Below are positions 54,113-62,048 of a stretch of 64,000 nt of DNA, one piece after another. Under the pieces are notes generated by a model. That model worked only from the letters and a program-made list of their open reading frames with translations. It was not told the DNA's origin and searched no databases. The stretch comes from an uncultured Candidatus Rokubacteria bacterium. Its GTDB lineage: Bacteria; Methylomirabilota; Methylomirabilia; Rokubacteriales; DASRDR01. Positions within the stretch are counted from its first letter, which is position 1. Every line of letters begins with the position of its first letter. The stretch is from the NCBI GenBank assembly GCA_963805625.1, contig CAWDVE010000010.1, positions 2,016,001-2,080,000 of the forward strand, read 5' to 3'. The translations under genes were made by a program, and so were the position numbers.

Positions 54113-54704
54113 GATAGGTCCCTATCGCGCCAGACCTTCAGTAAGCCGCTGAGGGGTCGAGCCAACCCACCGGCCGGCACCGGGGAGGTCGCCCCGGTGT
54201 CGGCCACGCGGGCCCACGGTCGAGTTCCACGCGAATCGCCTTCAGCTGCCGGTGCTCGAACTCGCTGACCATGAGGCCGCGCCACCGCTCGGCGGCCCGG
54301 ACCGTCGATGGGGCCAGGCGATCGGGCGATCAGCAAGAAGCGCAGGGGCGCATGCTGCGAAAGGCGAAGGCGTAAGTGCGCTTCCGAGAGCGCGGTTGGG
54401 CCAGGGTCTGGAGCTGGACGCTGCGCAGGAGGTTGTGGGTCACCCTGAAGCTCCCTAGCGATGCGAGAATTGGGAACCACGAGGGCGTCAGGCGCAAGCT
54501 TACGCGCTCGGTGACGACCTCGGCCAGCGTTTGCCCCTGACGGCGTGTTGCGGCGGTCAATGACCACGTTTCCGCCCTCTTCCCAACCCACCCGGCGCCG
54601 CGGGGTATTGAAGGAGACATCGAATCTCGGGAGTCTGCTACGATACGAACCGGCCTGACGAGCAGCGCATGAGCACCACGCCCTCCGGGAGGTCAGATGC
54701 CTCG

Positions 54705-54826
54705 ATGGCTCGCCTCGAAGACCTGACCCGAGGCGCGACGGTGAAGGGCATCCTGCCCGACCACTCCATGACCGTCGTGGACGCCCAATGGCACGGCTCG
54801 AGATGCGTCGAGCTAACGTACGAAGG
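54705..54826 (+). pseudogene. N-terminal remnant of an SNF2-family helicase gene
   Basis: MARLEDLTRGATVKGILPDHSMTVVDAQWHGSRCVELTYE matches, from memory, the N-terminus of helicases in helicase-DUF1156-DUF499 loci; similarity ends after about 40 aa. Confidence 0.55.
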
Positions 54827-54973
54827 GGAGGCCGGTCCTGGCCGGTCGCTCCCACGGGGTGGCGGGACTCGCTTCTGTGCGCCCATCCCGCGTCTGCGCC
54901 ACGATAGGCGCGTGACCGCGAGAGCCACGGTTCGGATCGGCGGCCCCCCGGGGGGTGCTTCGCGGAGGGTGTC

Positions 54974-57409
54974 ATGAATCGAGAGTGGTCGGCGCGGCAG
55001 TCGATCGACGACGATCCCGACGTGCGCATCGAGCGGGACGGCGCCGCCGTCCGTCAGGTCCTCCATCTGACGCGCCCGTTCATGCACGAGGGCGCCACCT
55101 CGCCCGAGGACCTCGCCGCCCAATACCTCCGCGTCCGTGCCAACCTGTTCGACATCGACCCATCCACCCTTCCCGGCTCCCCGTCGCCGGCCCAGGACGG
55201 GGCCCGCCTGGACCCGAACCCCATGTCGGTCGAGAGCCGGGAGGGCGAGAGCGTGGCGGTCATCTTCCAGCAAATCCAGAAGATCGAGTCCCCGGCTCCG
55301 GAAAACGCCCGGTTTGACCTCCCCATCTGGGGGGCGGGCATCCGGGTCATGGTCGCTCGCGCTCCGCTCCGCGTGACGAGCGCCTACACCACGCTCCAGC
55401 CTGACCTGCCGAAGACGGTCGCCGTAGAGAGCGGGCCCTACCCCTATCCGAAGACGGCAGAGGAAGCGGCTCCGGGAAGGGCCGATCCGGCCACCGTCGA
55501 GGGTTACTTCGCGTACCCGGGTCCGGACCCTCGCCTGCGCGCGCGGGCCTCTACCCCGGTGCTCGTCTTCGGTCGGGAGGAGCATCTGGAGAACGGCCGG
55601 ATCCTTCCCTACCGCTACTATCACGACCTCGAGACGGTCATCCGCAAGGAGGTGCTCGTCTCCTCGGCCGCCGGCCTCGTCTTTCCCGTGGATCCCAGAA
55701 GCCAGAGCGCTCAGCCCGAGCCTGGCCCGTACCGCCCCGGGACGGAGCTCGACGCCTACGCCGCGCACCGGTCGCTACCGGACCTCACCGCCCCGGCGCC
55801 CGGGGGCAATTGGACGCTCGAGGGGACGCGGGTCTATGTCGCGCAGCCCAACCCGCTCGGCATCGCTCCGCCGTCCGAGCCGGGCCAGCTCTTCGACTAC
55901 ACGGCCCGCACGAATCACTTCGCGGGCGTGAACGCCTATCGTCACTGCGACGCGGCGTTCCGGATGGTGGCGGCCCTCGGATTCCCCCTAGCTGTGTACT
56001 TCAAGCCGAACCACGATGCCGGCAAGTTCCCGATCCGGGTCGTGCACCGGGCGCCGATCCCCCCAGGGCGGGGGCTCTTCGACGGCCGGACGGTCAACGC
56101 CCAGGTCACCGGCGACGAGCTCCCCGGCGTCGTGGGCGAGATGCGCTTTGCCCTCGCCGATCTCACTGACGCGGTCGATAACCCGATCGGAATCGCTGCC
56201 GACGCGCGGTTCGCGTGGCACGAGTTCGGGCACGTTCTGCTCATCGCGGCGACTGGGGAGATCGAGTTCCGGTTCGCCCACGGTGCCGGCGACGCCCTCG
56301 CCGCCGTGATCTGCGATCTCGACTCGCAGGTCGCGGTGAGTCCCCAGCTCGCGCCATGGCGCGGCGTGACGTTCCCCTGGGTGGAGGCGCTCCGGCGCCA
56401 TGACCGTCGGGCCGAGGACGGCTGGGCCTGGCACGGCTCGCTCTATGACCGCGCCACGTACGGCGAGATCCGCGATCCCGCCGGCTACCGGGCGGAGCAG
56501 CTCCTCTCGTCGACGCTGTTCCGGCTCTACCTGGCCCTGGGCGGAGCCGCCCAGCTTCCGGGAGGCCAGCCGGCCGCCCTGGCGCGCCGGACGGCCGCGG
56601 CCTACACGGCGTACCTGATCGTGCGGGCGATCCGCGCCCTGGGTCCGGCTTCGACGGCGCCGGCCCTCGACGCGTACGGCCTGGCCGGCGCGCTCCTGGA
56701 CGCCGACGTCGGGACCGGCTCACTGCTCCCGGACGAGGCGCTGTTCGCGCCGTTCCCGGCCCGCCGCCGACGGGGCGGGGCGGCGCACAAGGTCGTGCGT
56801 TGGGCATTCGAGCGCCAGGGCCTCTACGCGCCGGCGGCGGGTCGCCGCCCCTGGAACGCTCCCGGCGATCCCGAGGCGGTCGACGTCTACATCGACGACG
56901 GGCGCAACGGGCAATACGGCTACACGGCAGCCTGGGAGGCTCAGGCCCCCCATCTGCGGGTGTCGGCCACTCCGAATCCCAATGACCCGGACGTCCCCCC
57001 GCACGCCAATGTGTCGAGTCACGTCTTCGTCCGGGTCCAGAATCGCGGACTCCAGCCGAACCCCCAGCCCGCCACGGTCCGGGTGTTCGTGGCGCGCGTT
57101 CCTCCAGCCGGGCGGCCGCGCTGGCGCCTCGGGCCGGGCACGGGCAATCCTTGGGCCGAGTTGCAAGGTGAAGTCGGTGCGACGACCAGCGCCGTCGTGC
57201 CGCCGGGGCAATCGGTCGAGTTCGGACCGTTCCGCTGGCGGCCGCCAGTGGCCGGGCTACACAGCCTCCTGGCCTGCGTCGACGCGCCAGGGGATCGCTG
57301 CAACGCCCTCAGCCCCACCCTCGCGTGCGCGATCGGCCCGACGCGGCTGGATCACCTGGTGCCGCTCGACAACAACATCGCCTACCGGGAGGTGGCGGTC
57401 CTCGCCTGA
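54974..57409 (+). CDS. Zinc metallopeptidase-like protein (M36/M4 gluzincin-like) with a C-terminal Ig-like domain
   Basis: GGAGG RBS; propeptide-like N-terminus; NAYRH, VNAQ, WHEFGH (HExxH), AHGAGD; C-terminal VFVRVQNRG...DNNIAYREV CARDB-like pattern. Confidence 0.75.
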   Translation: MNREWSARQSIDDDPDVRIERDGAAVRQVLHLTRPFMHEGATSPEDLAAQYLRVRANLFDIDPSTLPGSPSPAQDGARLDPNPMSVESREGESVAVIFQQIQKIESPAPENARFDLPIWGAGIRVMVARAPLRVTSAYTTLQPDLPKTVAVESGPYPYPKTAEEAAPGRADPATVEGYFAYPGPDPRLRARASTPVLVFGREEHLENGRILPYRYYHDLETVIRKEVLVSSAAGLVFPVDPRSQSAQPEPGPYRPGTELDAYAAHRSLPDLTAPAPGGNWTLEGTRVYVAQPNPLGIAPPSEPGQLFDYTARTNHFAGVNAYRHCDAAFRMVAALGFPLAVYFKPNHDAGKFPIRVVHRAPIPPGRGLFDGRTVNAQVTGDELPGVVGEMRFALADLTDAVDNPIGIAADARFAWHEFGHVLLIAATGEIEFRFAHGAGDALAAVICDLDSQVAVSPQLAPWRGVTFPWVEALRRHDRRAEDGWAWHGSLYDRATYGEIRDPAGYRAEQLLSSTLFRLYLALGGAAQLPGGQPAALARRTAAAYTAYLIVRAIRALGPASTAPALDAYGLAGALLDADVGTGSLLPDEALFAPFPARRRRGGAAHKVVRWAFERQGLYAPAAGRRPWNAPGDPEAVDVYIDDGRNGQYGYTAAWEAQAPHLRVSATPNPNDPDVPPHANVSSHVFVRVQNRGLQPNPQPATVRVFVARVPPAGRPRWRLGPGTGNPWAELQGEVGATTSAVVPPGQSVEFGPFRWRPPVAGLHSLLACVDAPGDRCNALSPTLACAIGPTRLDHLVPLDNNIAYREVAVLA

Positions 57410-57449: not shown

Positions 57450-58355
57450 TCACGCCCACTCGCCGGCCGCGCTCGTGAGCAGCTGCGCGAAATAGGGACA
57501 CTGCGCGGCATTCTTGAGCAAGGCGAAGCTCTGGTCGGCCAGATATTGGCCCGCCTGGGAATCGGATGCGTAGTGAAAGCCCCCCCGCTCGCGGTTGACG
57601 GCGACGCGCTCCGCCAGCCAATCGAGCGCGGGTCCATGCGAGAGCTTGATCGCCGCCGGCAGCGCCTCCTTGAGGCAGAGAGTCATCAGCCGGCTCTGGG
57701 TGGCGTGGCCGCTCGGAAAGGCCGGGTGCGCGGGCGGGCCGAAGGGCGGGCACAGGCCCGGGGACAGCACGGAGGGCCGCGGCCGCTTGTACGTGTACTT
57801 GAAGTGCATCGCGATGATCTCGCCGACGCGCACCGCCACGTTCAGCAGCACCAGGTTCCAGAACTTCGTCGTCCTGTCGAGGTTGAGCAGCGACGCCCAG
57901 TACTGCGGCGCACCGTCGTGCTGGATCACGATCTCCGCCAGGTAGCGCTCGCGCTGGTCGCGCATGAGCGTCTGAAGTCCATTGATCTCGCCGTTGACGA
58001 AGGCCTGAGCTTGCGCCGGTGTCGTTCCGCCGAAGGCGGTCGACCACTGGAGGAGATTGACCGGGATTTGGATCTGCTGCCACGGCGTGCCAGCGAACTC
58101 GTTCACATACCGCAGGGCGAGCAACGCCGGATCCCACTTCTCGTCGGCATAGTCCTGCCACGGCGGGGCTTGGATCTCCACGGGAAAGCTCGGCGGTGCG
58201 TTGGGGGCGAGCGTGAACTGGAGTGTCAGCGGCGCCGCGCCCAGCTCGGGCGGCGTACCGCCGAAGCCCATCCCCATGCCCATGCCCATGCCCATTCCCA
58301 TCCCCATGCCCATGCCCATGCCCATCCCCATGCCCATGCCCATCCCCATCCCCAT
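57450..58355 (-). CDS. PAP2/vanadium-dependent haloperoxidase-like protein with N-terminal (Met-Gly)15
   Basis: AAAAGGAGG RBS; motifs KYTYKRPRP (K-x6-RP), HPAFPSGHA and NRERGGFHYASD. Confidence 0.88.
   Translation of the reverse strand: MGMGMGMGMGMGMGMGMGMGMGMGMGMGMGFGGTPPELGAAPLTLQFTLAPNAPPSFPVEIQAPPWQDYADEKWDPALLALRYVNEFAGTPWQQIQIPVNLLQWSTAFGGTTPAQAQAFVNGEINGLQTLMRDQRERYLAEIVIQHDGAPQYWASLLNLDRTTKFWNLVLLNVAVRVGEIIAMHFKYTYKRPRPSVLSPGLCPPFGPPAHPAFPSGHATQSRLMTLCLKEALPAAIKLSHGPALDWLAERVAVNRERGGFHYASDSQAGQYLADQSFALLKNAAQCPYFAQLLTSAAGEWA
58266..58355 (-). repeat. Hexanucleotide tandem repeat (ATGGGN)15 encoding (MG)15
   Basis: 90 nt; ATG is invariant and the Gly codon varies (GGC/GGG/GGA). Confidence 0.95.
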
Positions 58356-58682
58356 GACGCCCTCCTTTTGGCGTGGCGCACCCGGGTCCCCGCCGGTGGC
58401 AGGCGACCACGAGCAGCTCGTGGCGGAGTTCTACTGATCGTGGGTTAGATGAAGCAGCTCGGCGCTCACCAACTGGGCAAATCCGCGTCGCGGCGCCGCC
58501 TCCTCCAAGGATCCGCAGCATCTCGCAGGCGACGTCCCGTCCCAGCACGGGACCGACCTGTGCGACCTCGCGCGCGGTCGGCGGGCGAGCCTAGCGACCC
58601 CTGAGCGAGTCCCGAAGCGCCGCCGGGATCGCCACTGGCGTGAGCGGCCCGGTGAGGGTGTCGAGGTCACCGTCTGTCCGGA

Positions 58683-61600
58683 TCAGCCTGGACTGCAGGA
58701 TCCGCTCGGCCTCAGATCGGCCTCCGCCTGCGCCAGCCCGAGAGGCATGTCCAGTCCCCGGTACATCATGGCGGCGGCCGTGAGATGCTCTTCAGCCATG
58801 GGATGGTCTCCGAGGCGTCGGTAGAGGCGTCCAAGGCCGAGGTGGGAGTGAGCGACCAGCGGGCGCATGCCCAGCGTCTCGGCCAGAGCCAGCCCCTGGC
58901 GGAGGTGGCGCTCGGCGGCGTCGAAGTCGCCCGGGTCACGGTCAAGCGCCAACTTCCCCAAGAGGTGGAGCGCGCGCGCTTCGTGGCCACGCTCGCCCCG
59001 GTCGCGAGCCAGGGCAAGCGCCCGCTCCGCCGCTGACCGAGCCTCGTCGGGCCGCCCCGCGCGAACGAGGGAATCGCCCTGCCAGACAAGAGTTGGAGCC
59101 AGGACCGCCTGGCGTCGGGTCTGGGCCTGCATCACGGCCGTCTCGAGGAGGGGGAGTCCCTCGGCCGGAGCGCCCCAGGCAGCGCGCGCGTAGCCGAGGG
59201 CACCCATGACCTGAACCTGGTACAGGAGGTTGTCGGTGCGACGACACAGATGGAGCGCCTGGTTCAGGGCCTCGACGGCTGTCGCCAGCTCGCCGCGCTC
59301 GAGATGCACGCGGCCAATGCCGAGGTGGGCCACCACACAGTTGAACGGCTCGTCCTTCGCGAGCTGCAGCGCGCGCTCCCCGCGGGCCACGGCCTCCACG
59401 AACCGTCCCATCTCAGCCAAACAGACGGCGGCCCAGGCGCCCACGACAGGGAGCCGGTTCACGAAGACGCCCGATCGGGGTATCCCCTCGTGCGCGGCAT
59501 CCACCGCCGCCGCCTGATCGTAGAGAGCGAGGGCTTCAGGAAGGTCGCCGGACGACAGGGCGATCTGACCGAGGAAGAATCTCGCGACGAACTCGATCTC
59601 CCAGTCGCCTTCGCCCGTGACGAGCTCCAGCGCCCGCGCCCCGTATTGGCGGGCCCGCTCGTAGGCGGCCGTCTCATAGTAGACGGCCGTCATGAATGTG
59701 TAGACGCGGCCCAGGCGCCGGCGATCCGCCAGCGCCGTGGCGAGGCGCTCCGCCTCCCGCAGGTGCTCGATAACCCGCTCGTGCTCGAGCAGTTGAGCGA
59801 GTGGCGTGCGGACGGCGAGTCGCAGATCGGCCGCCTCCTCCAGCCGGGCCCGTGTCTCCGGGAGGTGACCAAGGGCGAGGAGCGCACGCTCGTAGAGGAC
59901 CGCGGCTTCGGCGGCGGCCGCGGAGCGTGCGTAGACCTTGGCCGCAGCCTGACGAGCATACCTCACGGCTTTCTCCCACATCTCGGCCGCGAGCGAATGA
60001 TGGGCTAGGCGCTCGAACTCACCGGAGAGCCGATCGGCGTGGAGACGCTCGATCGCCTCGACGACGCGGGCGTGAAGGGCCCGCCGCCGCTCGTGCAGGA
60101 GGCCCTGATAGGTCACGTCATGGGTCAGGGCATGCTTGAACGTGTAGCCGACCTCGGGCGCGGTGTGCCTCTCGTAGAGCAACTCGGCCGCCCGGAGGTG
60201 TCTCAGGCCCGACCGCAGCCTTTCGTCCGACACCTCGGCGATCGCACGGAGCAAGGTGAGCGGCACGTCCTTGCCGACGACGGCCGCTGCCTGGAGAAGG
60301 GACTTGTCCTCCGGGACGAGGCGGTCGATCCGAGCGGCGAGGACGGCTCGTACTGTGGGAGGCACTGACAGGGCGTCCAGCGCCTGCTCGAGCCGATAGA
60401 CGCCTCGCTGGCCGACCAGAGCACCCGACTCGACGACAGTCTGGATGCTTTCCTCGAGGAAGAACGGGTTGCCCTCGGTGCGCTCGATCAGAAGCGCCTT
60501 CAAGGGATCGAGGGTCAGGTGGGTTCCAAGGAGCGCGTCGAGCAGGGCCGACGCGCTCTCTGGGGGGAGGGAGTCGACTCGGAGCTGCGTGTAGTAGGTC
60601 TTCCCACCCCAGTCGTGTCGATATTCAGGACGGTAGCTGACCAAAAGCAGAAGCCGGGCGGTCGGGAGCTGTTCGACAAGGGCGTCGAGGACAACCTGCG
60701 TTTCGGAATCACTCCACTGGAGGTCCTCGACGACGACGAGGAGAGGCTGGACGCCGCTCTCGTGGAGGAGAAGGCGCGTGATGAACTCACGGGTGCGCTC
60801 ACGTCGCCGCGTCGGGGCGAGGGCATGCCACGCGTCGTCTTCCACCGGTAGGTCCAGCAGCGCGAGCGGTGCCACGAGATCAGGCTGGAGCATGCTGCCG
60901 GGCGTCAGGAGCCTACCCGTGACCTTCTCCCGGGCCAGTTGCGGATCATCCCGCTCCTGAATCCCGAAGTATCGTCGCAGGAGGTCCACCAGCGGCAGAT
61001 ACAGCGTCGCCGTCCCGTAGGATACCGCATGGCCCTCGAGGACGAGCCAGCCGTGAGTGCGGTGGGAATGGGTCAGCTCCCAAACAAGGCGGGACTTGCC
61101 CACACCAGGTTCGCCGACAAGGGCGACGACCTGCCCGCGGCCGGCGGCAGCGCGGCTGATGGCCTGGCGGAGCTGCTCGATCTCGGCGTCGCGACCGACG
61201 AAGCGGGTGAGACCGCGGGCGGCGGCGGCGTGGAGGCGGGAACGCAACGGGCCGGCGCCGAGCATCTCGTAGGCCTCCACGGGCGCCTCGAGGCCTTTGA
61301 CCAGGCGCAGACCGAGCGGCCGGACCTCTATGTAGCCCTCGGCGAGGCGGAGGGTATCCACGTTCAACAATGTAGTGCCCGGCTCTGCGAGCTGCTCCAT
61401 TCGAGCGGCGAGGTGAGTCGTCTGCCCCACGGCGGTGTAGTCCATCTGGAGATCGCTGCCGATGGCGCCGACGACGACCTCGCCGGAGTTGAGTCCGACC
61501 CGAATCGCCAGGCCCTCCAGCCGATGCGTGTGGCGCACCTCCTCGGCGTACCGCCGAATCGCGGCCTGCATGTCAAGCGCGGCGTAGCAGGCCCGCACCG

Positions 61601-62048
61601 CATGGTCCTCGTGGGCCAGGGGGGCGCCGAAGAGCGCCATGATCCCGTCGCCCATGACCTGATTGACTGTGCCCTCGTAGCGGTGGACGGCCTCCATCAT
61701 GCGCTCGAGCACGGGATCGAGGAGCTTCCGAGCCTCCTCGGGATCCCGGTCGGCCATGAGCTCCATGGAGCCCTTGAGGTCGGCGAAGAGGACGGTGATC
61801 TGCTTGCGCTCGCCCTCAAGGGCGGTCTTTGAGGTCAGAATCTTCTCGGCGAGGTGTTTGGGGGTGTAGGTAGCTGGAGAGATGAACGGAGTTTCGGCTG
61901 CGAGCGGCTGGCCACACTGAAAACAAAAGCGAACGCCGCCGGGCAGCTCTGCACCACACCGCACGCAGGCCTGGGCGAGCTGCGCGCCGCACCCGAGGCA
62001 AAACTTCGCCTGGGGCGGATTGTCCGTCTGGCACTGCGTACACCGCAT
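58683..62048 (-). CDS. Double zinc ribbon-adenylate/guanylate cyclase-AAA ATPase-TPR (STAND-like) protein
   Basis: Four CxxC pairs, ITVLFADLKGS, MGDGIMALFGAP, Walker A GEPGVGKS, VVEDLQW, GNPFFLEE, FKHALTHDV, TPR-like tail. Confidence 0.95.
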   Translation of the reverse strand: MRCTQCQTDNPPQAKFCLGCGAQLAQACVRCGAELPGGVRFCFQCGQPLAAETPFISPATYTPKHLAEKILTSKTALEGERKQITVLFADLKGSMELMADRDPEEARKLLDPVLERMMEAVHRYEGTVNQVMGDGIMALFGAPLAHEDHAVRACYAALDMQAAIRRYAEEVRHTHRLEGLAIRVGLNSGEVVVGAIGSDLQMDYTAVGQTTHLAARMEQLAEPGTTLLNVDTLRLAEGYIEVRPLGLRLVKGLEAPVEAYEMLGAGPLRSRLHAAAARGLTRFVGRDAEIEQLRQAISRAAAGRGQVVALVGEPGVGKSRLVWELTHSHRTHGWLVLEGHAVSYGTATLYLPLVDLLRRYFGIQERDDPQLAREKVTGRLLTPGSMLQPDLVAPLALLDLPVEDDAWHALAPTRRRERTREFITRLLLHESGVQPLLVVVEDLQWSDSETQVVLDALVEQLPTARLLLLVSYRPEYRHDWGGKTYYTQLRVDSLPPESASALLDALLGTHLTLDPLKALLIERTEGNPFFLEESIQTVVESGALVGQRGVYRLEQALDALSVPPTVRAVLAARIDRLVPEDKSLLQAAAVVGKDVPLTLLRAIAEVSDERLRSGLRHLRAAELLYERHTAPEVGYTFKHALTHDVTYQGLLHERRRALHARVVEAIERLHADRLSGEFERLAHHSLAAEMWEKAVRYARQAAAKVYARSAAAAEAAVLYERALLALGHLPETRARLEEAADLRLAVRTPLAQLLEHERVIEHLREAERLATALADRRRLGRVYTFMTAVYYETAAYERARQYGARALELVTGEGDWEIEFVARFFLGQIALSSGDLPEALALYDQAAAVDAAHEGIPRSGVFVNRLPVVGAWAAVCLAEMGRFVEAVARGERALQLAKDEPFNCVVAHLGIGRVHLERGELATAVEALNQALHLCRRTDNLLYQVQVMGALGYARAAWGAPAEGLPLLETAVMQAQTRRQAVLAPTLVWQGDSLVRAGRPDEARSAAERALALARDRGERGHEARALHLLGKLALDRDPGDFDAAERHLRQGLALAETLGMRPLVAHSHLGLGRLYRRLGDHPMAEEHLTAAAMMYRGLDMPLGLAQAEADLRPSGSCSPG

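Follow-up and report, generated by a model that had tools for sequence, protein, structure and literature searches.

The window analysed here is the whole stretch of 64,000 nucleotides from the genome of an uncultured Candidatus Rokubacteria bacterium. One of its genes encodes a PAP2-type enzyme whose reading frame opens with fifteen Met-Gly units. A gene for a predicted zinc peptidase converges on it, and a co-oriented gene for a large cyclase-STAND-TPR protein lies upstream. The features of this locus are the following:

54974..57409, plus strand: convergent protease gene, 811 aa, with a predicted pro-region, an M36/M4-like zinc peptidase and a C-terminal CARDB-like domain (model)
56219..56233, plus strand: HExxH zinc motif, H416-E417-x-x-H420, of the 811-aa peptidase (alignment)
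57450..58355, minus strand: PAP2 ORF with N-terminal tract, 301 aa
57450..58130, minus strand: PAP2 core, residues 76-301, predicted single helical bundle of the class A acid phosphatase type (sequence and model)
57561..57593, minus strand: motif 3, R255...H261...D265 (alignment)
57705..57728, minus strand: motif 2, H210...S215-G216-H217 (H210-PAFPSGH217) (alignment)
57774..57800, minus strand: phosphate/vanadate motif 1, K186...R193-P194 (alignment)
58131..58265, minus strand: post-tract linker, residues 31-75, with a PPELG..PLTL motif (sequence comparison)
58266..58355, minus strand: (Met-Gly)15 periodic N-terminal tract, residues 1-30 (pLDDT below 50 in the monomer model)
58361..58366, minus strand: Shine-Dalgarno AGGAGG, 5 nt ahead of the first ATG (sequence)
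58683..62048, minus strand: zinc-ribbon/class III cyclase/AAA(STAND)/TPR gene, 1121 aa, co-oriented (sequence)

The repeat tract of the window gene

The strong ribosome-binding site, the 15 Met-Gly units and the PAP2 domain with all three of its motifs, which a first-pass annotation of this DNA had reported, are confirmed from the sequence. The tract consists of exactly 15 copies of ATG-GGN, with the Gly codons GGC (9), GGG (5) and GGA (1), a split that resembles that of seven window genes (GGC 0.59, GGG 0.24, GGA 0.08). It is the sole (MG) run in the genome and by far its longest exact dipeptide run (six frames, 7.27 Mb), so it does not result from chance. In the same 7.27 Mb, neither a second gene with such a tract nor a close PAP2 paralogue was found. 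Nor is the tract an assembly artefact, since an independent run on a soil metagenome gave a contig that spans positions 58273-58634 without a gap, including most of the tract.

The same annotation had taken the restriction of the variation to the Gly wobble base as a sign of protein-level selection rather than slippage. All six departures from the consensus unit do fall at this base, but Met has a single codon, which means that silent variation is possible at Gly only, and the five GGG copies do not represent five independent events. Moreover, the tract DNA shows a 24-nt super-period at 94%, which implies that slippage or block duplication helped to shape it. Protein-level selection and slippage are thus both at work in the window tract.

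In the AlphaFold monomer model, residues 1-31 have a pLDDT below 50 and no confident structure. The PPELG..PLTL motif that follows in the linker is specific to the metallopeptidase clade, and residues 31-75 can be regarded as a putative cleavage or docking region. A promoter and terminator scan found nothing at this locus.

Periodic tracts across the relatives

The relatives comprise 114 protein matches, the best 80 of at least 495 confirmed GTDB loci and the best 80 of at least 472 metagenome loci; the set of 160 loci (GTDB and metagenome) contains near-duplicates. An N-terminal periodic tract is present in 145 of these 160 best loci, while 10 are truncated at the 5' end and five were scored as having none. 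Among these five, L032 seems to be broken at its 5' end, the tract of L044 precedes the called start and L047 is degenerate, so only L041 and L054 are truly tract-less.

Homologues of the window gene therefore carry tracts as a rule, yet their sequences are strikingly diverse. Among the 136 distinct tracts, lengths range from 7 to 87 residues (median 19) and 65 different units occur, such as GT, GA, GY, GQ, GV, GH, GM, NQ, DF, DM and EN, or longer ones such as DGN, EGN, AGN, ADG, GGLN and one 8-residue unit. Gly makes up 41% of the tract residues and G/A/S/T/N together 76%, with 0.3% of K/R, 0.9% of P and no Cys. Only 10 of the 136 tracts have Met in their unit, and Met accounts for 3.3% of tract residues, which speaks against the roles first imagined for this residue as a hypohalite sink, a redox switch or a Cu/Ag site. 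Hypohalite-reactive residues as a whole (Met, Cys, Lys, Trp, Tyr and His) amount to 6.6% in the tracts versus 14.2% in the cores. MG tracts do recur in Bradyrhizobium and, independently, in Roseobacteraceae, and close relatives switch their unit among GV, GM and GL. Many tracts of the G1 clade, named after the class of the partner protease, are only 9-15 residues long.

The earlier claim that the tract is selected at the protein level was borne out: the distinct codon variants of the 136 tracts are synonymous in 638 cases and non-synonymous in 84, a ratio that is inflated as the tracts are defined at the protein level. On these sequence comparisons, it is the periodicity that is under selection, and not methionine. 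Phase variation was rejected, given that the repeat units are whole codons.

The tracts are very likely translated. Indeed, an in-frame ATG lies at most 20 codons before the tract in 125 of the 130 assessable cases, with a Shine-Dalgarno core in 104, and no Met occurs in the next 40 residues for 87 of the 117 Met-free tracts. A start downstream of the repeat, which had been considered as a possible objection, is therefore unlikely, with GTG or TTG starts possible. Annotation can nevertheless hide the tract: the database proteins P0006, P0009 and P0016 begin at its last Met, and P0009 nearly equals the L020 protein of Bradyrhizobium niftali from residue 33 on. A profile search returned 1,151 clusters at 50% identity (E up to 1e-30), and the tract is visible in the database sequence of 55 of its 133 new top matches. 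Since gene callers frequently place the start after the tract and annotate the product as an ordinary PAP2 protein, this large family has stayed hidden.

The PAP2 enzyme core

The window protein matches PAP2 with an E value of 2.4e-6. Among 54 homologues its three motifs are invariant or nearly so; H210 and E123 are invariant as well, and R135, E141 and Q145 near-invariant. Over the 160 best loci, motif 2 is found in 158, motif 3 in 157 and motif 1 in 144. All 158 loci having motif 2 also have a His of the vanadium bromoperoxidase (VBPO) type three residues before FPSGH, so this residue, which the first reading had pointed out, is real and invariant. In the window protein it is H210, which aligns with the bromoperoxidase His and with Phe397 of Curvularia. 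This His also occurs in distant relatives that lack a tract and have hydrophobic N-termini (P0348). The review PMC9144378 confirms the Phe397/His difference and gives its effect on halide specificity as uncertain.

The helical core of the AlphaFold model is confident (mean pLDDT 87). Class A acid phosphatases rank first in single-sequence (E 4e-7) and profile (E 1e-20) searches, and bromoperoxidases rank lower (profile E 1e-10), the matches to vanadium haloperoxidases (VHPO) having E values of 1e-10 to 1e-5 over the motif region. The predicted structure follows the same order: it aligns to class A phosphatases with Z scores of 18.6-21.1 (rmsd 2.1-2.9 A over about 200 residues) and to vanadium haloperoxidases and NapH3 with Z scores of 13.2-14.7. 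One bundle is seen in the monomer model; the two-bundle core typical of VHPO may be built by one chain or by a dimer. The initial description as a haloperoxidase-like enzyme is thus right as to the His and the motifs, but class A acid phosphatases are closer by sequence and by predicted fold, and the predicted activity is more probably that of a phosphatase or phosphotransferase than that of a haloperoxidase. No signal peptide of the kind found in class A acid phosphatases was detected in the tract-bearing PAP2 N-termini; a strongly hydrophobic 15-residue window occurs in only 6 of the 160 loci, and the N-termini are periodic tracts.

In some G1-clade PAP2 proteins (L036:6852-8636, L112:2266-4377, P0253, P0262, P0275 and P0276), one to three beta-rich inserts precede the core. 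These inserts have no Pfam or PHROGs match; their resemblance to the insert of phage head-decoration proteins is an unsupported assumption of ours. A PHROGs comparison of 10 proteins likewise gave no match.

The partner proteases

In the 811-aa peptidase of the window, H416, E417, H420 and E508 are invariant over 62 homologues, E508 being the candidate third ligand. The model of this protein is confident, and Foldseek matches it to fungal M36 peptidases (E 4.5e-4, TM 0.40-0.46), and also to M4 and a CARDB domain. No Pfam match, PDB-sequence match or signal peptide was found, so the M36/M4 assignment is made by fold only. The first-pass annotation had suspected a link between this neighbour and the tract, and the peptidase is indeed a true partner that recurs across loci, which keeps alive both the removal of the tract as a leader and the idea of a polymerising motif. 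Consecutive accessions in Bradyrhizobium hipponense confirm the peptidase-PAP2 pair. In the phylum of the window, the M36-like peptidase occurs in 9 of 251 genomes and in none of 14 congeners. Two further M36-like cases (L231 and L232), on Mesorhizobium and Paracoccus plasmids, have no annotated repeat-PAP2 neighbour.

The partner is not always of this class. Over the 160 best loci, the proteases are HExxH peptidases (55), G1 (45), S8 (28), C1A (7) and C70/C39-like (5). There are thus five unrelated partner classes (M36-like, G1, S8, C1A and C70), and a sixth one, an S9 prolyl oligopeptidase, is fused behind a (TA)n-PAP2 enzyme in two related genomes. In L180:4372-8283 and L183:4302-8077, this fusion is preceded by a tandem tract-less PAP2 paralogue in which Leu replaces the invariant His; in L183 the receptor and the peptidase are both split, perhaps by assembly errors. 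A hydrophobic export signal is absent from 141 of 142 protease ORFs in a crude test.

Two minor observations concern the window peptidase gene. An RNA run gave one 240-nt contig within it, which is too weak to count as expression. Just before it lies an ORF (54669-54977, plus strand) without a match in Pfam, NCBIfam or PHROGs, whose first 55 residues presumably resemble the N-terminus of SNF2-type helicases.

The TPR receptor and the three-gene module

When all ORFs of the 160 loci are clustered, one constant neighbour and several alternative ones emerge. The constant one is a TPR receptor, the third and most constant partner, which had been missed in the first-pass annotation. It is present in 125 of the 160 best loci and is co-oriented directly upstream of the PAP2 gene in 112. 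With about 600 residues, it combines an N-terminal output domain, a TolB/FlgO-like middle part and TPRs; the middle part gives weak FlgO matches and is what we take to be TolB-like. While the TolB-like/TPR part is constant, the output domain swaps between a class III cyclase, BTAD/wHTH and a sigma-54 activator, the latter being found in relatives of the window's genome. Of the 101 receptors of full length, 83 retain the cyclase residues D, D, N and R. At the position that selects the base, 40 of 95 have K, 16 have E and 13 have S, with differences between clades (E in 15 of 33 in the metallopeptidase clade, S in 12 of 32 in the G1 clade, K elsewhere), which suggests that modules may make different cyclic nucleotides. 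The RRNPP family models gave no match among the module receptors, which weakly match TIGR04510 (40 of 400 bits, far below cut-off).

Receptor and protease are both present in 112 of all 160 best loci. Where the flanks extend to 3 kb or more on each side, the receptor is found in 72 of 72 loci and the protease in 70 of 72. Another six loci belong to the phylum of the window, and all six have the three genes. The two loci without a protease are the two truly tract-less loci, both from Bosea, and no peptidase was found with Pfam among their 27 flank ORFs; this joint loss of tract and protease represents one event in one Bosea lineage. The three genes also stay together whatever their order: in the rearranged loci L109, L028 and L111 the receptor gene is inverted and follows downstream, and L109 additionally has its peptidase gene upstream in the same orientation.

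The period of the tract follows the protease class, being even in 49 of 49 M36-like loci, 3 in 40 of 40 G1 loci and 4 in 7 of 7 C1A loci, and the linker motif likewise tracks the class. The PAP2 tree also splits by protease class, with 7 changes for a minimum of 6 (quick tree of 81 rows, leaving out 3 of the 80 GTDB loci and L182, which lack the motif pattern used), so the match of period and class amounts to about six events and may reflect shared descent. Receptor and enzyme have also diverged in parallel, as the identity of the receptor TPRs correlates with that of the PAP2 cores (Spearman 0.58 over 70 loci).

The receptor, the repeat-tailed PAP2 enzyme and the protease therefore form a conserved and widespread bacterial three-gene module, and this conclusion is well supported. 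The module is mainly distributed in Pseudomonadota and in Rokubacteria/Methylomirabilota, and its cultured hosts include Bradyrhizobium, Ruegeria, Reyranella and Roseomonas. CRP-family genes occur in 17 of the 160 best loci.

The window copy and its receptor

The enzyme of the window falls in the metallopeptidase clade (27 rows, support 95), but no module-type receptor was found in its genome and no remnant of one near the window. The best match to such a receptor reaches 264 bits and is 340 kb away, versus 381-597 bits for held-out module receptors (n=36). A lone cyclase-TolB-like-TPR gene (G000:C10:1730103-1732277) lies outside the module clade, and no PAP2 or M36-like gene was found in the 18 kb examined near it. 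At the place that the module receptor occupies elsewhere, 327 bp upstream of the PAP2 gene, lies the cyclase-STAND-TPR gene. It is one of 28 long paralogues in the genome, most of them 32-67% identical over long stretches, a set that looks like an NLR-like expansion. Its cyclase matches TIGR03903 with 317 of 706 bits, far below cut-off, and an AAA region like its own was found in none of the 160 loci.

This protein shares the logic of a TPR sensor coupled to a cyclase and may for this reason be a replacement receptor, but the gene may also be a chance neighbour. The chances seem about even that it has taken over the receptor role in this genome or that the module receptor was simply lost.

How the module may function

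The catalytic motifs are intact in the PAP2 enzymes, the metallopeptidases and most cyclases, and all three proteins look cytoplasmic from their sequences. TPR peptide receptors encoded beside a processed precursor are established in the RRNPP systems. On this basis we tentatively propose, with a confidence that stays somewhat short of an even chance, that the protease cuts the unstructured tail and that the freed peptide switches the output of the TPR receptor, the PAP2 gene being the middle member of the module. The protease would be cytoplasmic and made as a zymogen and, once activated, it would cleave within or just behind the tail. The released periodic peptide would bind the TPR groove, where its backbone and period would be read more than its side chains, and the receptor would then make a cyclic nucleotide or activate transcription. 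The freed core may act as a class-A-type phosphatase or phosphotransferase, either as a second output or as a maturase.

Several observations fit this proposal poorly. No alignment column of the receptor or the peptidase was found to track the unit of the tract (lowest family-wise P values of 0.47 and 0.54, over 21 lineages and with low power), and in distant pairs sharing the same unit, TPR similarity is no higher than in others (0.43 vs 0.43). Together with the switching of units among close relatives, the lack of unit-tracking columns is odd for a specific ligand, and the missing side-chain-specific signal leaves room for an assembly tail, a fused RiPP-like precursor or a toxic effector. 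The proposal also gives no reason for the use of an enzyme as a precursor, and the lack of a module-type receptor in the window's genome counts against the proposal as well.

The first alternative is that the Gly-rich tract polymerises and clusters the enzyme in fibrils or condensates, possibly as cross-beta for period 2 and as a polyglycine-II-like structure for period 3; the receptor would respond to the intact tail or to its polymer, with the protease resetting the system. This would explain why the side chains vary freely whereas the periodicity and the small residues persist, and why no partner site tracks the unit. Alternating units such as GA, GQ, NQ, TA and NL are known amyloid-prone patterns. 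The partners, however, offer no template: no real matching tract was found in 132 receptor ORFs and none in the proteases, while of three flagged cases one was a run of N, one the ORF of a PAP2 fusion and one a shadow frame. As many G1-clade tracts are so short and the window genome has no second tract gene, we consider polymerisation, with the structures proposed for it, unlikely.

We give a smaller chance to the idea that the enzyme is a fused precursor and maturase, following a RiPP logic, in which the PAP2/VHPO-type domain would modify its own tract before the protease frees the modified peptide for the TPR receptor. The tracts share no side chain (compare GA, GV, TA, NQ and DF), so only a backbone chemistry could be common to them, and we know of no backbone-modifying chemistry for PAP2 enzymes. 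Furthermore, no transporter or other tailoring gene recurs in the flanks of the 160 loci, and tract-less paralogues keep the core. In favour of this idea, H210 and E123 are invariant and R135, E141 and Q145 nearly so, and the receptors weakly match the cyclase of peptide-modification systems TIGR04510, as does the window cyclase TIGR03903, both far below cut-off. N-terminal repeats fused to an enzyme are also described for SkrBURP (PMC11253845). Protease classes that serve RiPP maturation include S8, C39-like and S9, the last of which is fused here.

Slightly less probable again is a death or defence effector, in which the tail would keep a toxic phosphatase or oxidase off until the protease removes it when the receptor senses an invader. 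The patchy spread of the peptidase in the phylum and the STAND-TPR gene upstream in the window would suit such a role, and protease and output swapping are typical of conflict systems according to passages of PMC7159879. Yet the receptor outputs are regulatory, and neither the PAP2 enzyme nor the peptidase has a match in PADLOC 2.0, where PycC is matched only by a generic cyclase domain and a subtilase model by one S8 protease. The comparison of flanks with PADLOC covered 150 genes of 14 loci (out of 564 flank ORFs, and without a matched set of controls); 7 of them gave a match, each time owing to a common domain, for example a kinase. No close relative was found on viral contigs (best E 1e-17) or plasmids, and a location in defence islands or mobile elements is not supported by these comparisons.

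A neutral spacer, namely a slippage-born low-complexity run tolerated at the N-terminus, is very improbable: the 24-nt super-period and the free variation of length (7-87 residues) and unit would be expected of it, but the tract is present in 145 of the 160 best loci and in all clades, shows a strong synonymous excess and genome-like Gly codon use, and was lost together with the protease. Finally, the original reading as a vanadium haloperoxidase with a Met-rich hypohalite sink, redox switch or Cu(I)/Ag(I) site has kept the invariant VBPO-type His (the residue discussed in PMC9144378) and the recurrent MG tracts on its side, but with 126 of 136 units Met-free and reactive residues depleted it is refuted as a family-wide role and is hardly credible otherwise, the enzyme being nearer to acid phosphatases and the His, of uncertain role, also occurring in tract-less P0348.

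Relation to known systems

The class A acid phosphatases (PhoN, PhoC and the P. aeruginosa enzyme 7f17) are likewise single soluble helical bundles of about 220 residues with the three motifs. The module enzymes differ from them by the lack of an export signal, the presence of a tract and a linker, the His three residues before FPSGH and fixed gene partners, at 14-23% identity. With the vanadium haloperoxidases (Ascophyllum, Corallina, Curvularia, NapH1/NapH3), they share the vanadate-binding motifs and the VBPO-type His, which is not diagnostic alone, whereas they are about half the size and align with the lower Z scores given above.

As for signalling, the RRNPP systems of Firmicutes comprise Rap-Phr, NprR-NprX, PlcR-PapR and AimR-AimP. 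The module would be analogous to them in having a TPR receptor with an output domain beside the gene of a peptide source, the release of a peptide being presumed here. In contrast to RRNPP, the role of precursor would fall to an enzyme that bears a homopolymer-like tail and lacks a signal peptide, not to a small exported protein, and the module has a dedicated in-locus protease (of six classes), a TolB-like domain and cyclase outputs. Proteins of TIGR04510 and TIGR03903 also place a cyclase and TPRs next to putative peptide processing, beside peptide-modification clusters, but the module scores far below their cut-offs, and no NHLP precursor, YcaO or dehydrogenase recurs in the flanks of the 160 loci. 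In amyloid signalling (Bab/Agp, BASS, HET-S), a TPR-bearing receptor adjoins an enzyme or effector that carries a short repeat-like motif at one terminus; there, according to 10.1101/2024.11.07.622273, receptor and effector have this motif in common, while the module receptors have none. The borosins and fused burpitides have repeats and enzyme in one chain, a protease in the cluster and a prolyl oligopeptidase among the partners (PMC11253845); unlike them, the module has no common modifiable residue and no known PAP2 maturase, and its constant partner is a receptor and not an exporter.

A full-text literature search found no description of the module, an earlier mention being possible, and the passages of PMC8195603 and PMC7159879 on conflict systems do not mention it. 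The receptor-enzyme-protease module with a polymorphic repeat tail is thus apparently undescribed in print.

Taken as a whole, the release and reading of a tail peptide would define a new widespread class of peptide signalling, a proposal we rate as a little less than evenly probable: a PAP2/vanadium-enzyme domain would carry, and may also chemically modify, a simple periodic signal; proteases of unrelated families, recruited on at least six occasions, would set this signal free, and TolB-like/TPR receptors would read it. It would be unusual for six unrelated protease classes to have been recruited repeatedly to the same slot, each with a repeat period of its own, and the superfamily would gain a new chemistry if a PAP2 enzyme acted on its own tail or together with it. 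Cyclase-TolB-like-TPR proteins, which to our knowledge have no recorded ligand, are frequent among soil and symbiotic bacteria. If the proposal is true, it would provide the first ligand for these orphan proteins and, in this genome, for the NLR-like cyclase-STAND-TPR family too. The module already names, in cultured hosts, a candidate ligand source and a candidate activating protease for the cyclase-TolB-like-TPR proteins.
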